From NCBI GenBank assembly GCA_963814375.1, contig CAWFCQ010000007.1, positions 160,001 through 224,000 of the forward strand: 64,000 bases of DNA, written 5' to 3'. Positions within the stretch are counted from its first letter, which is position 1. Every line of letters begins with the position of its first letter. The notes below the pieces were generated by a model that saw only the letters and a program-made list of their open reading frames with translations, did no database searches and was not told where the DNA came from. Source of the stretch: an uncultured Chloroflexia bacterium. Lineage in GTDB: Bacteria; Chloroflexota; Limnocylindria; QHBO01. Both the position numbers and the translations under genes were made by a program. Below, one piece after another: positions 2,638 to 9,378 of the stretch.

Positions 2638-3374
2638 CGCCCGAGAGCATCCTCCTTGCGGCGCTCTTCTTCGCCGCGGCGCTGCTCTACGCGAGCGTCG
2701 GTCACGCAGGAGCGTCCGCATACCTGGCGGCCATGGCGCTCGTCGGCGTCGCGCCAGAGACGATGCGGCCGACAGCCCTCGTTCTCAACCTCTTCGTGGC
2801 GACGATCGTGGTCGTCCGCTTCGCGATGGCCGGCCACCTTCCGTGGCGTCAGCTCGTACCGCTGGCGATCGGATCGGTGCCGATGGCATTCCTGGGCGGA
2901 AGCATCGCGCTGCCGGATGAGGTGTACCGCCCCCTGGTCGCCGCGGTGCTCCTCGTCGCCGCCTGGCGGCTGTTCACCGCACCGGTACCGGTCGATGACA
3001 CGGATCGCCCGGGCGTCCCATTCCTCGCCGGCGTCGTGGCAGGCGCCCTCATCGGCCTCCTTGCCGGCCTGACCGGAACCGGCGGCGGCATCTTCCTGAC
3101 CCCTCTCCTGGTCCTCGCCGGCTGGACGGGGACGCGCGATGCGGCCGGGCTCTCGGGGTCGTTCATCCTCGTGAACTCGATCTCCGGGTTAGCCGGGCTG
3201 ATGACCGGGGGTTTGGTCCTGCCGCCGGCCCTGCCGATCTGGGTGGGATCGGTGGTGGCCGGTGGGCTCATCGGCTCGTGGTTCGGCGCAGCCCGCTACA
3301 GCGTGCTGAGCCTCCGGCGGGCATTGGCGTTCGTCCTCGTGCTGGCGGCCGCCAAGCTCGTATTCCTGCCGTGA
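2634..3374 (+). CDS. Sulfite exporter TauE/SafE family membrane protein
   Basis: GTG at 2634 overlaps the upstream TGA. Multi-TM protein with YASVGHAGAS and GLTGTGGGIFLTP repeats. Confidence 0.85.
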   Translation: MTPESILLAALFFAAALLYASVGHAGASAYLAAMALVGVAPETMRPTALVLNLFVATIVVVRFAMAGHLPWRQLVPLAIGSVPMAFLGGSIALPDEVYRPLVAAVLLVAAWRLFTAPVPVDDTDRPGVPFLAGVVAGALIGLLAGLTGTGGGIFLTPLLVLAGWTGTRDAAGLSGSFILVNSISGLAGLMTGGLVLPPALPIWVGSVVAGGLIGSWFGAARYSVLSLRRALAFVLVLAAAKLVFLP

Positions 3375-3397
3375 CAGCGGGGGTAGGATGGGCGCCG

Positions 3398-4822
3398 ATG
3401 ACGGCCCCCCAGCAGCCCGCGTTGCACGGCAGCGACCGCCTCCGCCTCGTCGGCGCCGAGACCGAGGTGCCGCTCGTCACGGGCGGCACCCGTCGCTACG
3501 TCAACCTCGATTACGCCGCATCCGCGCCGGCGCTGGTCGCCGTCCACGACGCGGTGGAGGAGCTGCTCGGCTGGTACTCGAGCGTCCACCGCGGTGCCGG
3601 CTTCAAGTCGCGCGCCTCGACCGCCGCCTACGAGGGCGCCCGCGAGTCTATTCGGCGGTTCGTGAATGGCCGCGCCGACGACGCCGTGGTCATCACCCGC
3701 AACACGACCGACTCCATCAACCTCCTGGCCGGAACCCTTCCCGAGGGCACCCACGTCGTCGCCTTCGCCGGCGAGCACCACGCCAACCTTCTCCCCTGGC
3801 AGCGATGCGGCGTGCGCTACATGGGCGTGCCCCAGAGCCCGGCCGAGATGCTCGAGACGCTCGAGGCGACGCTGCGCGAGCTGCCGTCCTGCGAGGACCC
3901 GCACCTGGTTGCGACGACCGGCGCCAGCAACGTGACCGGCGAGATCTGGCCGCTGGGCGAGATGGCACGCATCGCCCACGACAACGGCGCCCGGCTGCTC
4001 GTCGATGCCGCACAGCTCGCTCCGCATTCGCCCATCGACATGCAGCGCGACGGCATCGACTTCCTGGCGCTATCCGGCCACAAGCTGTACGCCCCGTACG
4101 GCGCGGGCGCGCTCATCGGCGAGCGCGACTGGCTGATCGCCGGCGACCCGTTCCTGCGCGGCGGCGGCGCGGTCAAGCTCGTGACGGTCGACGAGACGGT
4201 GTGGGCCGATCTCCCCGATCGCCAGGAAGCTGGCTCACCGAACGTGATCGGAGCGGTCGCCCTGGGCGTCGCCTGCGACACGCTGGCCGAGGCCGGTATG
4301 GACCGCATCGCGGCCGAGGAAGCCGAGCTCCTGGCCTATGCTCGCGAGAAGCTCGCCACGATCGACGGATTCCGCCACTACCACGTCTGGCCGTCCGATC
4401 ACGCCCGCGTCGGCCTCCTCACCTTCAGCCTGGGCGAGGTCCCGTACGATCTCCTCGCCGCCTGCCTCTCGGCCGAGCACGGCATCGGCATCCGCCACGG
4501 CTGCTTCTGCGCCCACCCCCTCATGGTCCGTCTGCTCCGCGTCGACGACGGGGAGGTCGACCGCCTGCTCGACGAGACCCGCGCCGGCCACCACCTGCGC
4601 CTCCCGGGAGCCGCCCGCATGAGTCTCGGGCTCGGCTCGACCCGCGCGGACATCGACGCCCTCGCCGATGCGCTGCGCGCCATCGCCACCGAGGGGCCGC
4701 AGTGGACGTACCGCGTCGATCCCCGGACCGACGAGTACGAGCCCTACCCCGATCCTCGCCCGCTTCCGCCGCTGCCGATGCGCCTCGTTGACCACCCGCA
4801 TGGCCACGGGGAGTCGGCGTAG
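3398..4822 (+). CDS. Class V PLP-dependent aminotransferase / cysteine desulfurase-like (SufS/CsdA type)
   Basis: YVNLDYAAS, SVHRG, EHHAN, DAAQ, SGHKLYAP (PLP Lys), RHGCFCAHP (catalytic Cys). TAGGAT -10 lies 8 nt before ATG 3398. Confidence 0.9.
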   Translation: MTAPQQPALHGSDRLRLVGAETEVPLVTGGTRRYVNLDYAASAPALVAVHDAVEELLGWYSSVHRGAGFKSRASTAAYEGARESIRRFVNGRADDAVVITRNTTDSINLLAGTLPEGTHVVAFAGEHHANLLPWQRCGVRYMGVPQSPAEMLETLEATLRELPSCEDPHLVATTGASNVTGEIWPLGEMARIAHDNGARLLVDAAQLAPHSPIDMQRDGIDFLALSGHKLYAPYGAGALIGERDWLIAGDPFLRGGGAVKLVTVDETVWADLPDRQEAGSPNVIGAVALGVACDTLAEAGMDRIAAEEAELLAYAREKLATIDGFRHYHVWPSDHARVGLLTFSLGEVPYDLLAACLSAEHGIGIRHGCFCAHPLMVRLLRVDDGEVDRLLDETRAGHHLRLPGAARMSLGLGSTRADIDALADALRAIATEGPQWTYRVDPRTDEYEPYPDPRPLPPLPMRLVDHPHGHGESA

Positions 4823-4870
4823 GGGGTTGAGCGCGCACATGCGCCGCGTCACCGCTACCGTATCGGTCAC

Positions 4871-5527
4871 ATGAGGATCGGTGCGGCCTTGGGGAGCCAT
4901 CGGCCTGCGATCGCCTTCTGGGCGGTGGCTGCGCTCGCCCTGCTCGCCAGCCACGACGCGATCTTCCTCGTCCAGGTCGGTCCGGGCGAGGAGCTCGCGC
5001 GCCTGCTCCGAAGTGCGGGCCACGGCTACTGGGGACTGGCCAGCACCATCATCGGCGTCGCCGGCATTGGTGTCGGAATCGCCGCAGCCCTCCGCCTTCG
5101 GGCGTTGCGACGCCGGGCAGCCGGCCTGCCGGCGGCACCCATCGGATCGCGGGGCGTCAGGGACATCCTGCCGATCTGGGGCCGCCTGCTCGCCGTCGTT
5201 GCCGTCGGCTTCATGGTCCAGGAAAACGTCGAGCACTTCATCGCGCACGGCCACGTGATGGGACTCGCCGCATTGGCCGGCCCGGAGTATCCGCTCGCGA
5301 CGCCCGTCATCGGCCTCATCTCGTTGGCCGCTGCCATCGTCGTCGGGTTGTTCGTCCACCACGAACGGGCTCTGCTGGCATCGATCGAGGCGGCGCTGCG
5401 CGTCAGCCTCCGCCCGGTTCGGGCACTCGTCCGCGCTCCCGGCCAACTCCGCGTCCATCCGGCGACCGGCCTCGCCCAGCCGGGCGCCGGGCGCGCCCCT
5501 CCTCTCGTGCCGCTCAGGATCGGATAA
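4871..5527 (+). CDS. His-rich 4-TM membrane protein with C-terminal RAPP motif; putative ribosome-arrest leader of the copper operon
   Basis: Four hydrophobic segments; His motifs SHD, GHGYW, QENVEHFIAHGH; ends GRAPPLVPLRIG. First gene of a same-strand cluster with CopCD. Confidence 0.7.
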   Translation: MRIGAALGSHRPAIAFWAVAALALLASHDAIFLVQVGPGEELARLLRSAGHGYWGLASTIIGVAGIGVGIAAALRLRALRRRAAGLPAAPIGSRGVRDILPIWGRLLAVVAVGFMVQENVEHFIAHGHVMGLAALAGPEYPLATPVIGLISLAAAIVVGLFVHHERALLASIEAALRVSLRPVRALVRAPGQLRVHPATGLAQPGAGRAPPLVPLRIG

Positions 5528-5574
5528 CCAGAGCAAGCGGGCGCGGGACTCAGCCGCGACCCGGCACAGAGGAG
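5499..5574 (+). promoter_or_regulatory. RBS-sequestering stem: CTCCTCT(C)GTGCCG (5499-5512) pairs with CGGCACAGAGGAG (5562-5574)
   Basis: 13-bp complementarity with one bulged C, read directly from the sequence. The 3' arm contains the GAGGAG SD of the gene at 5585; the 5' arm is the PP-L-V-P codons of the RAPP leader. Confidence 0.7.
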
Positions 5575-5584
5575 TCATCAACCC

Positions 5585-6175
5585 ATGCACAGTCGCATCG
5601 GACGGGCTGCCGTCCTCTCCATGCTGCTCGTCGCCCTCGCCGGAATTGGCACGGCGAGCGCCCACGAGGAGCGCGAGGTCGGCGATCACACCTTCGTCGT
5701 CGGCATGCTCGACGAGCCGGTGTTCGCCGGCCAGAAGAGCGGCCTCGAGCTGCGGGTCTCGCACGAGGGCACTGAGCCGGTCGAGGGCCTCGAGGAAACC
5801 CTCCAGGCCGAGGTCACCTTCGGCGGCGAGACGCGCGAGCTCGAGATCTCGCCGATCTTCGGTGAGCCGGGCGCCTACCGCTCGGTCTTCTTCCCGACCG
5901 CCGCGGGACCGTATTCGTTCCGCATCTTTGGCGAGGTCGAGGGCGAGCCGTTCGACGAGACCTTCACTGCCGGACCGGACACCTTCGGGGAGGTCCAGGA
6001 CGCTGCCGGCGGGCAGTTCCCGGTCCAGTACCCGCCTACCGGTGACATCGTGAGCGACGCAGAGGCCGGTGCGGCAGCCGGAACGACCGCCACGATCGCC
6101 CTGGTCCTCGGCTCGGCCGGCCTCCTCGCGGGCGTCGCCGCACTCGGCCTCTCGCTGGCACGCCGGCGAAGCTGA
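5585..6175 (+). CDS. Secreted, C-terminally anchored protein with mature N-terminal His (putative copper-binding)
   Basis: Signal peptide ending ASA|HEER, beta-rich body, C-terminal TM plus RRRS. Its stop overlaps the copCD start. Confidence 0.7.
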   Translation: MHSRIGRAAVLSMLLVALAGIGTASAHEEREVGDHTFVVGMLDEPVFAGQKSGLELRVSHEGTEPVEGLEETLQAEVTFGGETRELEISPIFGEPGAYRSVFFPTAAGPYSFRIFGEVEGEPFDETFTAGPDTFGEVQDAAGGQFPVQYPPTGDIVSDAEAGAAAGTTATIALVLGSAGLLAGVAALGLSLARRRS

Positions 6176-8064
6176 TGCCCCGGCTCCGCCGCTGGCGCTG
6201 GGCCGCGGTCGGCGCCTTCGTCGCGTTGCTGGCGCTCCCGGCGGTGCCGGGTGGCGCGGGCAGCCGCGTGCTGGCTCATGCCCAGCTCGTGGCGAGCTCG
6301 CCGAGCCCGGGCACGATCCTCGAGGAGCCTCCCACCGAGCTGCGGCTCGTCTTCAGCGAGCCGCTCGAGTCCCAGGTCACTTCGCTCGACCTCGTCACGC
6401 AGGACGGGACCGAGCTGCTGGTACGCGCCGGCGAGATCGACCCCAACGATCCCTACGCCCTCGTTGCCACCGCCCCCGGCCTCGCCGACGGGGTGTACTC
6501 GGTCACGTGGCGCACCCTGTCGGCTGCCGACGGGCACACCATCGAGGGCTTCTTCACCTTCGGCGTGGGTGAGATCGAAGGAGGGCTGCCACCCGTCGGT
6601 CCTGGCTCGGCCCACGCCGAGACCGACGCGATCGGGGTCCTCGGGCGGTGGCTGACCTACATCGGGCTGCTCCTCGCCATCGGCCTCGCCGCCTTCCATC
6701 GGTTCGTTGTTCGAAATGGCCCGATGCCGGTCGCCCTCGTGCGCCTCATCGCGGCCGGGCTCGCCGTCTCGGCGGTGGCGACGCTGGCGACGGCGGTCGG
6801 ATCAGCCGTGGCAGCCGGCGCGGGCGTCGACTACCTGCTCGGCACGCGCAACGGCGCGCTCCAGCTCGCTCGCGCGGCCGTTGCCGCGCTCGGCGCCATC
6901 TCGCTCCTCGTCGCCCCGCGTCGCTTGACGGGCGCCCTCGCGGCGGCCACGGGACTCATCGGCGTCGTGCTGCTCGCCGCCGCCGGGCACGCGGCCGCGC
7001 TGCCGGGTCCGGTCCCGGTGATCAGCCAGGCCGTGCATGTGGTCGCGGCCGGCATCTGGATCGGCGGGCTGGCCGGGCTGCTGATGCTCCTGGTTGCACC
7101 GGCGGTGATCAGCGAGGAGGGGCGGATCGAGATGCGCAGCGTCGTGCCGCGCTTCTCGGCGCTGGCGCTGGGATCGATCGGCATGGTGGTGCTGACCGGC
7201 GCGTACGCCGCGTGGATGGAGATGGGTGCGCTCCTCGACGTCGGCACCGAGTACGGCCGCACACTGCTGATGAAGGCCGGCCTCGTCGCCGGCGCGCTCG
7301 CCCTCGGCAGCCTCAACTACTTCGACGGCGGCCGGATGCGGCCATGGCTCGACGGATTCCGCACACGGCTCTCGGTGGAGGTCATGGTCGCGGCAAGCGT
7401 GCTGCTGATGACCGCCGTGCTGGCCACGACGCCGCCGATCCACGCTGCCGGCGGTGTCGCCATCGAGCCGGTCCCGGATGCCTTCGGGAACGTGGCGCCG
7501 CAGATGGAGATGCACGTAGTGCCGGGCCGGCCCGGCGTGAACCGTGTCGTCGTCACCACGACCGACGCCCTTGCATCGGCTGCGGGGATGGAGCTCGGGT
7601 TGGATCGGCTCGATACCGGCACGAGCACACGCGTGCCGCTCGTCCTCGAGGGGACCCAGGGCATGGGCGGCATGGAGGGAATGGACCACGCCGACGCGGC
7701 CACCGCCGATGGCGACGACAGCGTCGACTGGGTCGCCGATGCCCTGATCCTGCCCGCCGGAAGCGACTGGAGCACCAGCGTCCGGATCCTCGCCACCGAT
7801 GGAAGCGAGCTGTCGCGCCAACGGTTCGACTTCGCGCTGGGGCCGGATGGAATCTCCGAAGGCGAGGTCCGGGACCTACTCAATCCGGCAACGCTCATTG
7901 CAATCGCCCTGGCTCTCGGAGGCGCGCTCGGCATCGGCCTTGGCCTGGGCGGCTTCATCATCCCGCGCTGCGAGGCGCTCGCGTCACGCGTTGCCCTGGT
8001 GGGCGGCGGCGTCACGGCCATGGTCCTCGGCTTGTTGATGGGCATCAACGGGCTGATCGCCTGA
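6175..8064 (+). CDS. copCD: Copper resistance/uptake CopC-CopD fusion protein
   Basis: AHAQLVASSP...FSEP...W.TLSAADGH CopC motif; CopD TMs (GHA, HVVAAGIWIGGL, RFS.LA, YGRTLLMK); Met/His patch MGGMEGMDH. Confidence 0.9.
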   Translation: MPRLRRWRWAAVGAFVALLALPAVPGGAGSRVLAHAQLVASSPSPGTILEEPPTELRLVFSEPLESQVTSLDLVTQDGTELLVRAGEIDPNDPYALVATAPGLADGVYSVTWRTLSAADGHTIEGFFTFGVGEIEGGLPPVGPGSAHAETDAIGVLGRWLTYIGLLLAIGLAAFHRFVVRNGPMPVALVRLIAAGLAVSAVATLATAVGSAVAAGAGVDYLLGTRNGALQLARAAVAALGAISLLVAPRRLTGALAAATGLIGVVLLAAAGHAAALPGPVPVISQAVHVVAAGIWIGGLAGLLMLLVAPAVISEEGRIEMRSVVPRFSALALGSIGMVVLTGAYAAWMEMGALLDVGTEYGRTLLMKAGLVAGALALGSLNYFDGGRMRPWLDGFRTRLSVEVMVAASVLLMTAVLATTPPIHAAGGVAIEPVPDAFGNVAPQMEMHVVPGRPGVNRVVVTTTDALASAAGMELGLDRLDTGTSTRVPLVLEGTQGMGGMEGMDHADAATADGDDSVDWVADALILPAGSDWSTSVRILATDGSELSRQRFDFALGPDGISEGEVRDLLNPATLIAIALALGGALGIGLGLGGFIIPRCEALASRVALVGGGVTAMVLGLLMGINGLIA

Positions 8065-8111
8065 GCGTGCCCACGTTGCGCCCGGGGCCGCAGACTGCGA
8101 CGATCAGGCCG

Positions 8112-9131
8112 ATGCCCGCTGACCTAACCGTGCTCGATACCTTGGGTCGGCCCATGCGCGACCTGCGCGTCAGCGTCACCGATCGGTGCAACTTCCGCTG
8201 CACGTACTGCATGCCGAAGGAGGCTTTCGGGCCGGATCATGCCTTCCTCGCGCGCGAGGAGACCCTCACCTTCGAGGAGATCTTCCGAATCGTCCGCGCC
8301 GCCGTCGGGCTCGGGGTCCGCAAGGTCCGCCTCACCGGTGGCGAGCCCCTCGTCCGCCGCGGTCTCGAGCAGCTTGTCGGTCTCCTCGCGCCGATCGAGG
8401 GAATCGAGGACCTCACGCTCACGACGAACGGCTCGCTCCTCGCGGCCCGCGCATCGGCCCTCGCGGCGGCGGGGCTCCAGCGGGTCACGGTGAGTCTCGA
8501 CGCGCTCGACGACGAGACGTTCATGGCCATGAACGACGTTGGCTTCGGCGTTGCCCGCGTGCTCGAGGCCATCGATGTGGCCCAGTCCGCCGGCCTCGGG
8601 CCGATCAAGGTCAACACGGTCGTCAGGCGCGGCGTGAACGAGCACGCGATCGTCGATCTCGCCGCTCATTTCCGCGGCCACGACACGACGGTGCGCTTCA
8701 TCGAGTACATGGATGTCGGGCACACGAATGGGTGGCGCCTCGACGAGGTCGTCCCCGCGGCCGAGATCGTGGCAACCATCGATGCTCGCTGGCCGCTCGA
8801 ACCGGTGGATCCCGGCTATCGCGGCGAGGTGGCGCAACGCTATCGGTACCGGGACGGAGCCGGCGAGATCGGCGTCGTCAGCAGCGTGACCCAGCCGTTC
8901 TGCGGCGATTGCACCCGCGCGCGGCTCTCCGCCGACGGCCACCTGTACACGTGTCTCTTCGCGACCGTCGGCCATGACCTGCGCACCCTGCTGCGCTCCG
9001 GCGCGGATGACGCGCAGCTGACCGAGGCGCTGCGGATCCTGTGGGCCGGCCGCTCGGATCGCTACTCGGAGCTCCGATCGCTCGAGACTATCGGACTTCC
9101 GAAGGTGGAGATGAGCTTCATCGGCGGCTGA
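8112..9131 (+). CDS. moaA: GTP 3',8-cyclase (radical SAM, molybdopterin biosynthesis)
   Basis: LRVSVTDRCNFRCTYCMP, FCGDCTRARL, C-terminal MSFIGG. Confidence 0.97.
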   Translation: MPADLTVLDTLGRPMRDLRVSVTDRCNFRCTYCMPKEAFGPDHAFLAREETLTFEEIFRIVRAAVGLGVRKVRLTGGEPLVRRGLEQLVGLLAPIEGIEDLTLTTNGSLLAARASALAAAGLQRVTVSLDALDDETFMAMNDVGFGVARVLEAIDVAQSAGLGPIKVNTVVRRGVNEHAIVDLAAHFRGHDTTVRFIEYMDVGHTNGWRLDEVVPAAEIVATIDARWPLEPVDPGYRGEVAQRYRYRDGAGEIGVVSSVTQPFCGDCTRARLSADGHLYTCLFATVGHDLRTLLRSGADDAQLTEALRILWAGRSDRYSELRSLETIGLPKVEMSFIGG

Positions 9132-9189: not shown

Positions 9190-9378
9190 ATGTGCCTGAA
9201 CTGCGGCTGCATGCGTGCCCATGACGACATGGGCAAGCCCGGGGTCAACATCACCTACGAGGACGTCAAGGCCGCCGCCGATGCCAACGGCACGACGGTC
9301 GAGGAAGCGCTGGCCACGATCGCCCGCACTGCCGACAAGGATCGCGGCGACCATCCCCAGGAGTACGCGTCCGCCTAA
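9190..9378 (+). CDS. Small Cys/His-rich protein (MCLNCGCMRAHDDMG), putative metal-binding
   Basis: AAGGGAG RBS, typical high-GC codon usage, N-terminal CxxCGCxxxH. Confidence 0.75.
   Translation: MCLNCGCMRAHDDMGKPGVNITYEDVKAAADANGTTVEEALATIARTADKDRGDHPQEYASA

Follow-up and report, generated by a model that had tools for sequence, protein, structure and literature searches.

Previously, ribosome arrest at the tetrapeptides Arg-Ala-Pro-Pro (RAPP) and Arg-Gly-Pro-Pro (RGPP) was described as robust, refractory to elongation factor P (EF-P), and largely independent of context, with the P and A sites of the ribosome occupied by the two proline codons (Fujiwara et al., EMBO J 2025, PMC12992588). 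In the survey of 52,895 genomes reported there, small membrane or secreted proteins with RAPP or RGPP were enriched upstream of genes for YcnI-family, PCuAC, SCO, and CopC proteins, and those ahead of YcnI genes were mostly transmembrane (TM). All seven proteins of Streptomyces lividans with a C-terminal RAPP or RGPP were arrested. The S. lividans protein SLIV_18480 has four predicted TM segments, a predicted site of three His and one Met, and two Cys, and its arrest was observed in vitro and in vivo (PMC12992588). The present analysis concerns gene X, which was found in a 64,000-nucleotide stretch of contig CAWFCQ010000007.1 from an uncultured Chloroflexia bacterium (the whole stretch is referred to as the window), and the two genes that follow it, which encode protein Y and the CopC-CopD fusion CopCD. 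X is probably a RAPP-type arrest leader that is fused to a four-helix membrane sensor and controls Y and CopCD. Its family is found in a set of Chloroflexota from soil.

Two leaders of the DUF2946 family are described ahead of copper genes. CruR of Bordetella pertussis (Bp2923; Roy et al., mBio 2022, PMC9426467) contains a CxxC motif and RAPP and is described with Rho-dependent termination in a 162-nt intergenic region. CutF of Rhodobacter capsulatus (Ozturk et al., bioRxiv 10.1101/2025.02.05.636593) contains a signal peptide and a CxxxC motif and stalls in an EF-P-sensitive manner on a Pro-Pro-Pro (PPP) repeat, PEPEGPPPRL. According to the same preprint, copper induces this stall and thereby switches on a detoxifying oxidase. 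CutF had been counted among the RAPP leaders in the initial annotation of the window, and this assignment is corrected by the PPP repeat.

A stall near the end of the leader open reading frame (ORF) opens a hairpin that sequesters the next gene's Shine-Dalgarno (SD) sequence in the SecM-secA and MifM-yidC2 pairs. In the ycnKJI operon of Bacillus subtilis, YcnJ is a CopC-CopD importer, YcnI is its copper-binding partner, and YcnK is a repressor.

X resembles the SLIV_18480 type in its length of less than 300 residues, a RAPP or RGPP motif a few residues from the C-terminus, a copper gene downstream on the same strand, four predicted TM segments, and a predicted His-based site. The two proteins, compared by description only, differ in the core of that site, which is two His and two Glu (with one further His) in X, with no Cys or Met, and three His and one Met in SLIV_18480, with two Cys. 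X belongs to Limnocylindria-type Chloroflexota and SLIV_18480 to Actinomycetota, and the neighbor of X is not a YcnI protein by Pfam; a remote relative of X with RGPP does precede a canonical DUF1775/YcnI gene, as in the set described in PMC12992588. The proposal in the initial annotation that X is a different class of sensor stands relative to DUF2946, since X has no match to PF11162, no Cys, and no signal peptide, but its novelty was overstated, as a four-TM RAPP protein with a His site is already reported in PMC12992588. The terms "Shine-Dalgarno" and "stem-loop" are absent from the text of that paper, in which the downstream mRNA mechanism is not treated. The motif QEN[VLIA]EH of X is absent from eight of its supplement files, and the family may still be listed in the remaining files. 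The supplement does include an actinomycete RAPP protein encoded ahead of a YcnI gene. No description of the X family was obtained from literature searches that combined arrest peptide with YcnI or ribosome stalling with CopD and upstream ORF.

Like CruR, as far as that system is described in PMC9426467, X carries RAPP close to its C-terminal end, only a few residues ahead of the stop codon, and heads an operon for copper acquisition. The spacing between RAPP and the metal motif, a candidate one in X, is conserved in both proteins, with 45 residues in CruR and 91-92 residues (from QENxEH) in X. The proposed logic is also common to both: arrest would keep the downstream genes on and copper would relieve the arrest. 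CruR is a secreted DUF2946 protein with CxxC, whereas X is polytopic, Cys-free, and not DUF2946, and is followed by a 57-nt intergenic region with an SD-masking stem. Like CutF, as described in its preprint, X would sense extracytoplasmic copper across the membrane through the nascent chain, and for X it is proposed that the stalled ribosome likewise melts an SD-shielding stem. The stall sequences differ (PPP in CutF, RAPP in X), and X lies ahead of uptake and assembly genes whereas CutF lies ahead of a detoxifying oxidase; an opposite sign to CutF is therefore more likely for X.

SecM and MifM monitor the machinery that is encoded downstream, and their N-terminal parts are poorly conserved; X, in contrast, has a conserved polar site and copper genes behind it. 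The combination of Y and CopCD matches the gene content of ycnKJI, with an N-terminal-His, anchored extracytoplasmic protein and a CopC-CopD fusion. The B. subtilis operon is controlled by a DNA-binding repressor, whereas the window has no adjacent regulator gene and contains a RAPP leader in that position.

Gene X and Its Arrest Motif

The features of the locus are listed in Table 1. X ends with the sequence G-R-A-P-P-LVPLRIG, and its translation contains SHD, GHGYW, and QENVEHFIAHGH and no Cys. The initial annotation had read the gene as a four-TM protein with these His stretches and with G-R-A-P-P near its end, and both the translation and the helices of the AlphaFold2 model agree with that reading. 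By analogy with the proteins described above, X would very probably stall its own ribosome at RAPP. The predicted stall register, which is taken from the toeprint of CruR presented in PMC12992588, assigns Pro210 to the P site and Pro211 to the A site.

The position of the motif is strongly conserved. The refuting condition named in the initial annotation, a loss of RAPP and of the anti-SD pairing in homologues, for the most part did not hold. A word-indexed protein search with X returned 141 homologues at E ≤ 1e-3, and RAPP is located within 12 residues of the C-terminus in 120 of 120 among the matches listed. An exhaustive HMMER search returned 311 cluster (50%) representatives, 117 of them at E ≤ 1e-10. 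Among the matches listed from this search, 124 of 148 distant representatives have RAPP or RGPP no more than 16 residues from the C-terminus; most of the 24 representatives without a terminal motif look like fragments or frame-shifted calls. A single-protein query for related genomic loci gave none, and a query with the family alignment gave 61. RAPP is found near the stop codon in 55 of these loci and RGPP in two (57/61 together), down to about 33% identity, and the remaining four (L055, L059, L060, and L061) are frame-shifted or cut at a contig end. A crude ORF scan of the genome of the window (89% complete) detected 20 occurrences of R[AG]PP, and the motif lies near a C-terminus in X only.

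The spacing of the motifs was evaluated with 133 sequences in which the motif patterns are recognized. Of these, 110 have QENxEH and RAPP separated by 91-92 residues, and 91 have a tail of seven residues after RAPP. The preferred residues ahead of RAPP are S at -9, L at -7, A at -6, A at -2, and G at -1. Cys is absent from 102 of the 133 sequences and, in the word-indexed search, from 87 of 120 homologues among the matches listed.

The AlphaFold2 model of X, which was calculated with 35 sequences, has a mean predicted local distance difference test (pLDDT) score of 77.6. Helices are found at residues 2-36, 52-83, 99-126, and 143-180, with pLDDT values of 85-95 over helices 3 and 4, and the tail (residues 181-218) is disordered. 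The positive charges are concentrated at the N-terminus, in the loop of residues 77-100, and in the C-terminal tail; by the positive-inside rule, the topology is therefore likely to be N-in/C-in. X has four TM helices where the DUF2946 proteins have a cleavable signal, and neither a signal peptide nor a CxxC or CxxxC motif is present. A Foldseek comparison of the model with the PDB gave nothing at E ≤ 0.001, and the top rows were generic helical bundles.

Conservation of individual residues was counted in 114 full-length representatives of the family. H28 (100%), H51 (99%), E118 (98%), and E121 (98%) are near-invariant, and W54 (95%), N119 (91%), Q117 (87%), and H122 (80%) are also well kept. 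These polar residues would face the outside, since they are placed at the outer ends of helices 1-3 in the model.

X is gene-like in composition, with a codon-position G+C of 0.77/0.53/0.84 in a window of 70% G+C; the third-position value of 0.84 compares with 0.87-0.89 in the adjoining genes. X was not assigned to any Pfam or NCBIfam family (Pfam gave none at E ≤ 0.1). DUF2946 (PF11162) was not matched, and the sole Pfam match at E ≤ 10 is unrelated (E 0.36). The gap between the stop codon of the upstream aminotransferase gene and the start of X is 48 nt (4823-4870), and there is no recognizable SD ahead of ATG 4871. No sigma-70-like promoter or terminator was detected in a consensus scan of positions 4500-8400.

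Predicted Pairing of the Shine-Dalgarno Sequence of Y with the Proposed Stall Region

In the window, CTCCTCT (5499-5505) and GTGCC(G) (5507-5511/12), separated by the bulged C5506, form 12-13 base pairs with (C)GGCAC (5562/3-5567) and AGAGGAG (5568-5574). This stem, with its single bulge, had been proposed in the initial annotation and is present in the minimum free energy (MFE) folds of two sub-windows. The fold of 5470-5620 (151 nt) has an energy of -70 kcal/mol and a z score of -2.35, and 3 of 200 shuffled sequences fold as well; in the second sub-window, the same stem is formed around two inner hairpins. G+C-rich hairpins of differing sequence appear at the analogous position in most close-clade loci. 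The gap from the stop codon of X to the start codon of Y is 57 nt in the window; close-clade loci have 39-62 nt here and distant-clade loci about 90-170 nt. The 5' arm would lie under the stalled ribosome, because it falls between +1 and +14 nt relative to the P-site codon, a region covered in known ribosome footprints.

The stall footprint was defined as the 28 nt that a ribosome covers with the first Pro codon in the P site. The pairing of the SD with this footprint is 1.00 in the window, compared with a mean of 0.12 for synonymous recodings of the arrest region, and none of 30 recodings reaches the observed value. The predicted energy required to open the ribosome-binding site (RBS) of Y is 13.3 kcal/mol for the free RNA and 6.0 kcal/mol with the footprint masked, a drop of 7.2 kcal/mol. 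The two CCT codons of the arrest motif, which the initial annotation had singled out as unusual, are indeed rare choices: CCT accounts for 4.2% of the Pro codons elsewhere in the family ORFs and for 10 of 134 in six genes of the window.

For the family, the 52 loci with an intact leader and an identifiable start codon of Y were folded. Folding was done sequence by sequence because the stem arms shift register between loci. The mean SD-footprint pairing probability is 0.53, compared with 0.13 after synonymous recoding with the codon usage of the family, and it is higher than the recoded value in 38 of the 52 loci (Wilcoxon p 3e-7, a value that overstates the significance because the sequences are related). 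When 90 nt of upstream context was added, the pairing was 0.46 for the footprint and 0.08 and 0.02 for two equal-sized upstream windows. The duplex formed by the footprint and RBS of the same locus is more stable than that of cross-locus combinations (-12.97 and -11.35 kcal/mol, respectively), a modest effect that is found in 33 of the 52 loci.

Codon choice in the arrest motif is biased in the direction that is needed for pairing with GGAG or GAGGAG. CCT encodes the first Pro in 24 of the 52 loci (background 4.2%) and the second in 14, and GCT encodes the Ala of RAPP in 16 (background 6.0%). In 13 loci, the first Pro codon is not CCT and the pairing is still strong; here the anti-SD sequence is located in the following codons, as with CTC CTC GTC, which faces ACGAGGAG. 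The tail of the distant clade has three residues, and the anti-SD sequence there spans the stop codon (CCTGA against TCAGG). In silico, masking of the SD under the proposed stall site is well supported for the window and for only about half of the family.

Table 1. Features of the X-Y-CopCD locus in window coordinates
Feature	Position	Strand	Description
Gene X	4871..5527	+	ATG 4871 to TAA 5527, 218 aa; membrane protein with four helices and predicted C-terminal arrest module
Codons of H28, H51, W54, E118, E121, H122	4952..5254	+	Outer ends of helices 1-3; candidate extracytoplasmic metal site
Linker and arrest peptide	5381..5503	+	Disordered, Arg/Pro-rich, ends S-x-L-A-x-x-x-A-G-R-A-P-P; pLDDT 52-58
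RAPP codons	5492..5503	+	CGC GCC CCT CCT = R208-A-P-P211; followed by 7 codons and TAA
Stem 5' arm (anti-SD)	5499..5512	+	Last Pro-codon bases and next three codons; MFE folds
Inner hairpin of intergenic region	5539..5562	+	G+C-rich, enclosed by the anti-SD stem; MFE fold
Stem 3' arm	5562..5574	+	Contains the SD of Y, GAGGAG, 10 nt ahead of ATG 5585; MFE folds
Gene Y	5585..6175	+	Signal peptide ending A-H-E, Ig-like domain, C-terminal TM anchor
CopC-CopD fusion (YcnJ-like)	6175..8064	+	PF04234 (E 1.5e-18), PF05425 (E 3.4e-13)

Downstream Genes and Distribution of the Family

Y and CopCD agree with the secreted N-terminal-His protein and the CopCD protein of the initial annotation, as judged by the signal peptide and TM anchor of Y and by the Pfam matches to CopC and CopD. 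H27 of Y directly follows the A-x-A site and is the predicted N-terminal His of the mature protein. In an alignment of 32 sequences of Y, residues H27, E44, Y98, Y110, and D124 are invariant. The AlphaFold2 model of Y (pLDDT 85.4) contains a beta-sandwich and a TM helix at residues 152-195. Foldseek matches were obtained for DUF4426 (7.6e-5), CrdA (1.6e-4), and FetP/P19 (about 1e-3), and no YcnI protein is among the matches listed. CrdA of Helicobacter pylori and FetP/P19, which are among the closest solved folds, are copper proteins. Y has no Pfam or NCBIfam match, and PF07987 (DUF1775/YcnI) in particular was not matched. DUF1775 is absent from the genome of the window and present in 4 of 401 Chloroflexota genomes. 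Y is likely a copper-binding partner of CopCD and a functional analogue of YcnI, and its family looks like a copper-binding protein that is missed by current models.

The stop codon of Y (TGA) and the start codon of copCD (ATG) share one base in TGATG (6173-6177), and this overlap suggests translational coupling of the two genes. The NCBIfam matches of CopCD to CopD and CopC are below the equivalog cut-offs. A C-terminal extension of about 200 residues has no Pfam match; it contains the Met/His-rich stretch G-M-G-G-M-E-G-M-D-H (7660-7689) and two more hydrophobic segments at the end. By comparison with YcnJ-type proteins, this extension may add a further domain that binds copper. A 62-residue ORF (9190-9378, + strand) just 3' of the MoaA-like gene starts with M-C-L-N-C-G-C-M, is Cys-rich, and may encode a small metal-binding protein.

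The copper-gene neighborhood is kept across the 61 loci. Nearly all of these loci are titled as Chloroflexota or Candidatus Limnocylindria metagenome-assembled genomes; two contigs are binned under other names and one is titled only "uncultured bacterium". Y is directly behind X in 58 loci, and the exceptions are L014 and L061 (contig edge) and L059 (broken copy). CopCD follows in 50 loci. Of the 11 others, 9 end before its position is reached, and L059 and L061 are the remaining two. The close clade also shares the upstream class-V aminotransferase and the downstream MoaA gene in synteny, and the distant clade shares X-Y-CopCD only. In L055, the reading frame of X continues for 61 residues beyond RAPP. 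X, Y, or CopCD is split across frames in L055, L059, L060, L048, and L046, for which assembly errors or decayed copies are possible.

Among the sampled Chloroflexota genomes, 12 of 401 carry X, including that of the window, and all belong to two families of one class. One of these genomes, G124, encodes four X paralogues on four contigs (L063-L066), and every one ends in RAPP. Two of them precede CopC and Caa3_CtaG, one of these beside a MerR-family regulator; another precedes SCO1/SenC and PCuAC; and the fourth precedes a BNR-repeat protein and a thioredoxin-like protein. A remote relative of 190 residues (L067:751-1323, + strand) with four hydrophobic segments and RGPP followed by three residues is encoded in another genome of the class, 57 nt ahead of a canonical DUF1775/YcnI gene (L067:1381-2070). 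It was aligned with the X family by hhalign (E 2.7e-4, probability 42%), and H28, GH-W, and E-x-x-E are in register in this alignment. The Leu-Leu codons behind its RGPP pair with the SD of the YcnI gene in the MFE fold, and this fold is no better than those of shuffled sequences (z 0.63). The feature common to the contexts of X is extracytoplasmic copper handling.

Identities to the window (3278-8064) in the same loci (L001-L037) are about 50% for X, 60-77% for Y (about 70%), 55-63% for CopCD (about 60%), and 77-87% for the upstream aminotransferase (about 82%); X thus diverges faster than all of its neighbors. A tblastn search of plasmids with X gave no match. The closest clusters to X in the ESM Atlas are unnamed hypothetical proteins with scores of 0.96-0.97; their taxon labels are Actinomycetota or Vulcanimicrobiota, with few members, and serve as a lead only. 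A search of sequencing runs found no run with half of the sampled words, and short pieces of relatives were obtained from one metatranscriptome and one run that was guessed to be RNA.

Proposed Mechanism and Alternatives

In the proposed mechanism, the ribosome would stall on X in the register given above. With the stall at 5498-5503, residues up to about 180 would be outside the exit tunnel, and all four helices would be inserted in the membrane and able to bind metal at its outer face. The stalled ribosome would cover the Pro codons and the next 12-15 nt and thereby free the SD of Y for translation, and CopCD would be translated by coupling to Y through TGATG. In addition, the stalled ribosome may keep Rho off the 3' end of X, which is C-rich. 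Occupancy of the His/Glu site (H28, H51, E118, E121, and H122) would change the pull on the fixed-length linker and so set the lifetime of the stall. Copper would shorten the stall and turn the operon down. This sign is favored by a narrow margin over the reverse one seen in CutF, on the grounds that copper uptake and the assembly of cuproenzymes are the functions of the controlled genes and that CruR behaves in this way. Metal sensing by X and its sign are both hypothesized.

The most novel version of this mechanism is tentative and has less than an even chance of being correct as a whole. It holds that an inserted, Cys-free domain with two His and two Glu reads extracytoplasmic copper and signals through a fixed linker to the peptidyl-transferase center. 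The same 6-15 nt would encode the arresting Pro-Pro with the following codons and also the anti-SD sequence, and would thus serve as a brake and as a mask of the RBS. The leader would have been reused within one class before at least four copper-delivery operons.

Several results weigh against the proposed mechanism. Membrane insertion pulls hardest on arrest peptides 30-40 residues from the stall site, as known from force profiles; TM4 of X ends about 47 residues before Pro211, so that the force of insertion by itself may not be what releases the stall. The His residues of the initial annotation are only partly conserved: H28, H51, and QENxEH are kept, but H126 (54%) and H128 (61%) are the weakly kept part of the His cluster, and the paralogue of G124 in the Sco/PCuAC context lacks H122, H126, and H128. 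No solved fold resembles X in the comparison with the PDB. The SD-footprint pairing is at least 0.5 in 25-28 of the 52 loci and below 0.5 in 24-27. Of the stem in the homologues, the enriched SD-footprint pairing and the codon bias hold, but there is no fixed register, and RNAalifold detected neither a consensus SD helix nor compensatory pairs in MAFFT alignments of 34 close-clade and 10 distant-clade segments that span the leader and the intergenic region. With the footprint masked, the SD is still mostly paired in silico, with a mean that changes from 0.81 to 0.70. Masking lowers the opening energy of the RBS by at least 3 kcal/mol in 7 of the 52 loci and by at least 1 kcal/mol in 22, with a median of 0.2 kcal/mol. 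The rare CCT and GCT codons could slow decoding instead of pairing. The coding region of the linker is also C-rich, with C minus G of +0.13 to +0.23 at 5385-5501 and +0.23 at 5424-5501, and C exceeds G in the linker in 52 of 52 loci (mean +0.12, compared with +0.02 for the remaining ORF); the genome of the window encodes Rho.

These last two points belong to an alternative in which the RAPP arrest is the same and the coupling is transcriptional, as in CruR. Stalled and queued ribosomes would cover a rut (Rho utilization)-like, C-rich 3' end of X and block Rho, release would lead to termination in the intergenic region, and SD pairing would be secondary. CruR uses such a region as its rut site, as reported in PMC9426467, and the weak predicted effect of the anti-SD on opening energy in most loci leaves room for this mode. 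The C-richness, however, is accounted for by the Pro, Arg, and Ala content of the linker, with no need to invoke selection. The intergenic region is short in the close clade (39-62 nt) and strongly structured, which is unfavorable for Rho, and a rut site leaves unexplained both the CCT/GCT bias and the relocation of the anti-SD sequence. The transcriptional alternative is considered unlikely, though it is the strongest of the competitors.

The well-conserved folded domain of X (pLDDT 85-95 over helices 3 and 4), with its conserved polar residues, and the constant co-occurrence with extracytoplasmic copper proteins would also be expected of a working subunit for copper uptake, such as a copper relay or a reductase partner of Y and CopCD, for which the RAPP pause only tunes stoichiometry or cotranslational assembly. 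Such a role is improbable. With about 50% identity, X diverges faster than the proteins it would serve and faster than the aminotransferase, and RAPP is reported to be strongly avoided in ordinary proteins (PMC12992588). A regulator fits better than a dedicated subunit because this one type of leader precedes operons whose copper proteins are unrelated (CopCD, CopC-CtaG, and Sco-PCuAC).

The least probable alternative is a monitor of membrane insertion with the logic of MifM and SecM, in which insertion force and not metal releases the stall: RAPP arrest peptides with signal or TM segments ahead of sec and yidC genes work in this way (PMC10987492; PMC12992588) and X does have four TM helices, but every context seen has copper genes downstream and none has sec or yidC, a monitor has no need of near-invariant His and Glu inside the TM domain, and insertion should be over at the stall given where TM4 ends.

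A nascent-chain sensor upstream of Y and CopCD is thus the preferred reading, and X is a new protein family within a recently described kind of control. Post-transcriptional control of copper genes by nascent-chain sensors is recent (CruR in 2022, CutF and the S. lividans survey in 2025), and functional study covers DUF2946 members only. The signature of the X family is clean, with four near-invariant polar residues, a spacing of 91-92 residues, and GRAPP in a compact, Cys-free, polytopic protein. The family provides natural replicates ahead of different copper operons, in which the logic of the mRNA can be read from synonymous codons. X would be a good system for the question of how ligand binding on the far side of the membrane changes the duration of arrest. 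Y gains a name, as a likely YcnI-like copper protein that Pfam misses, and a regulatory role is probable for the Chloroflexota genes that lie ahead of CopCD, Sco, or PCuAC genes and are labeled "hypothetical" for want of annotation.

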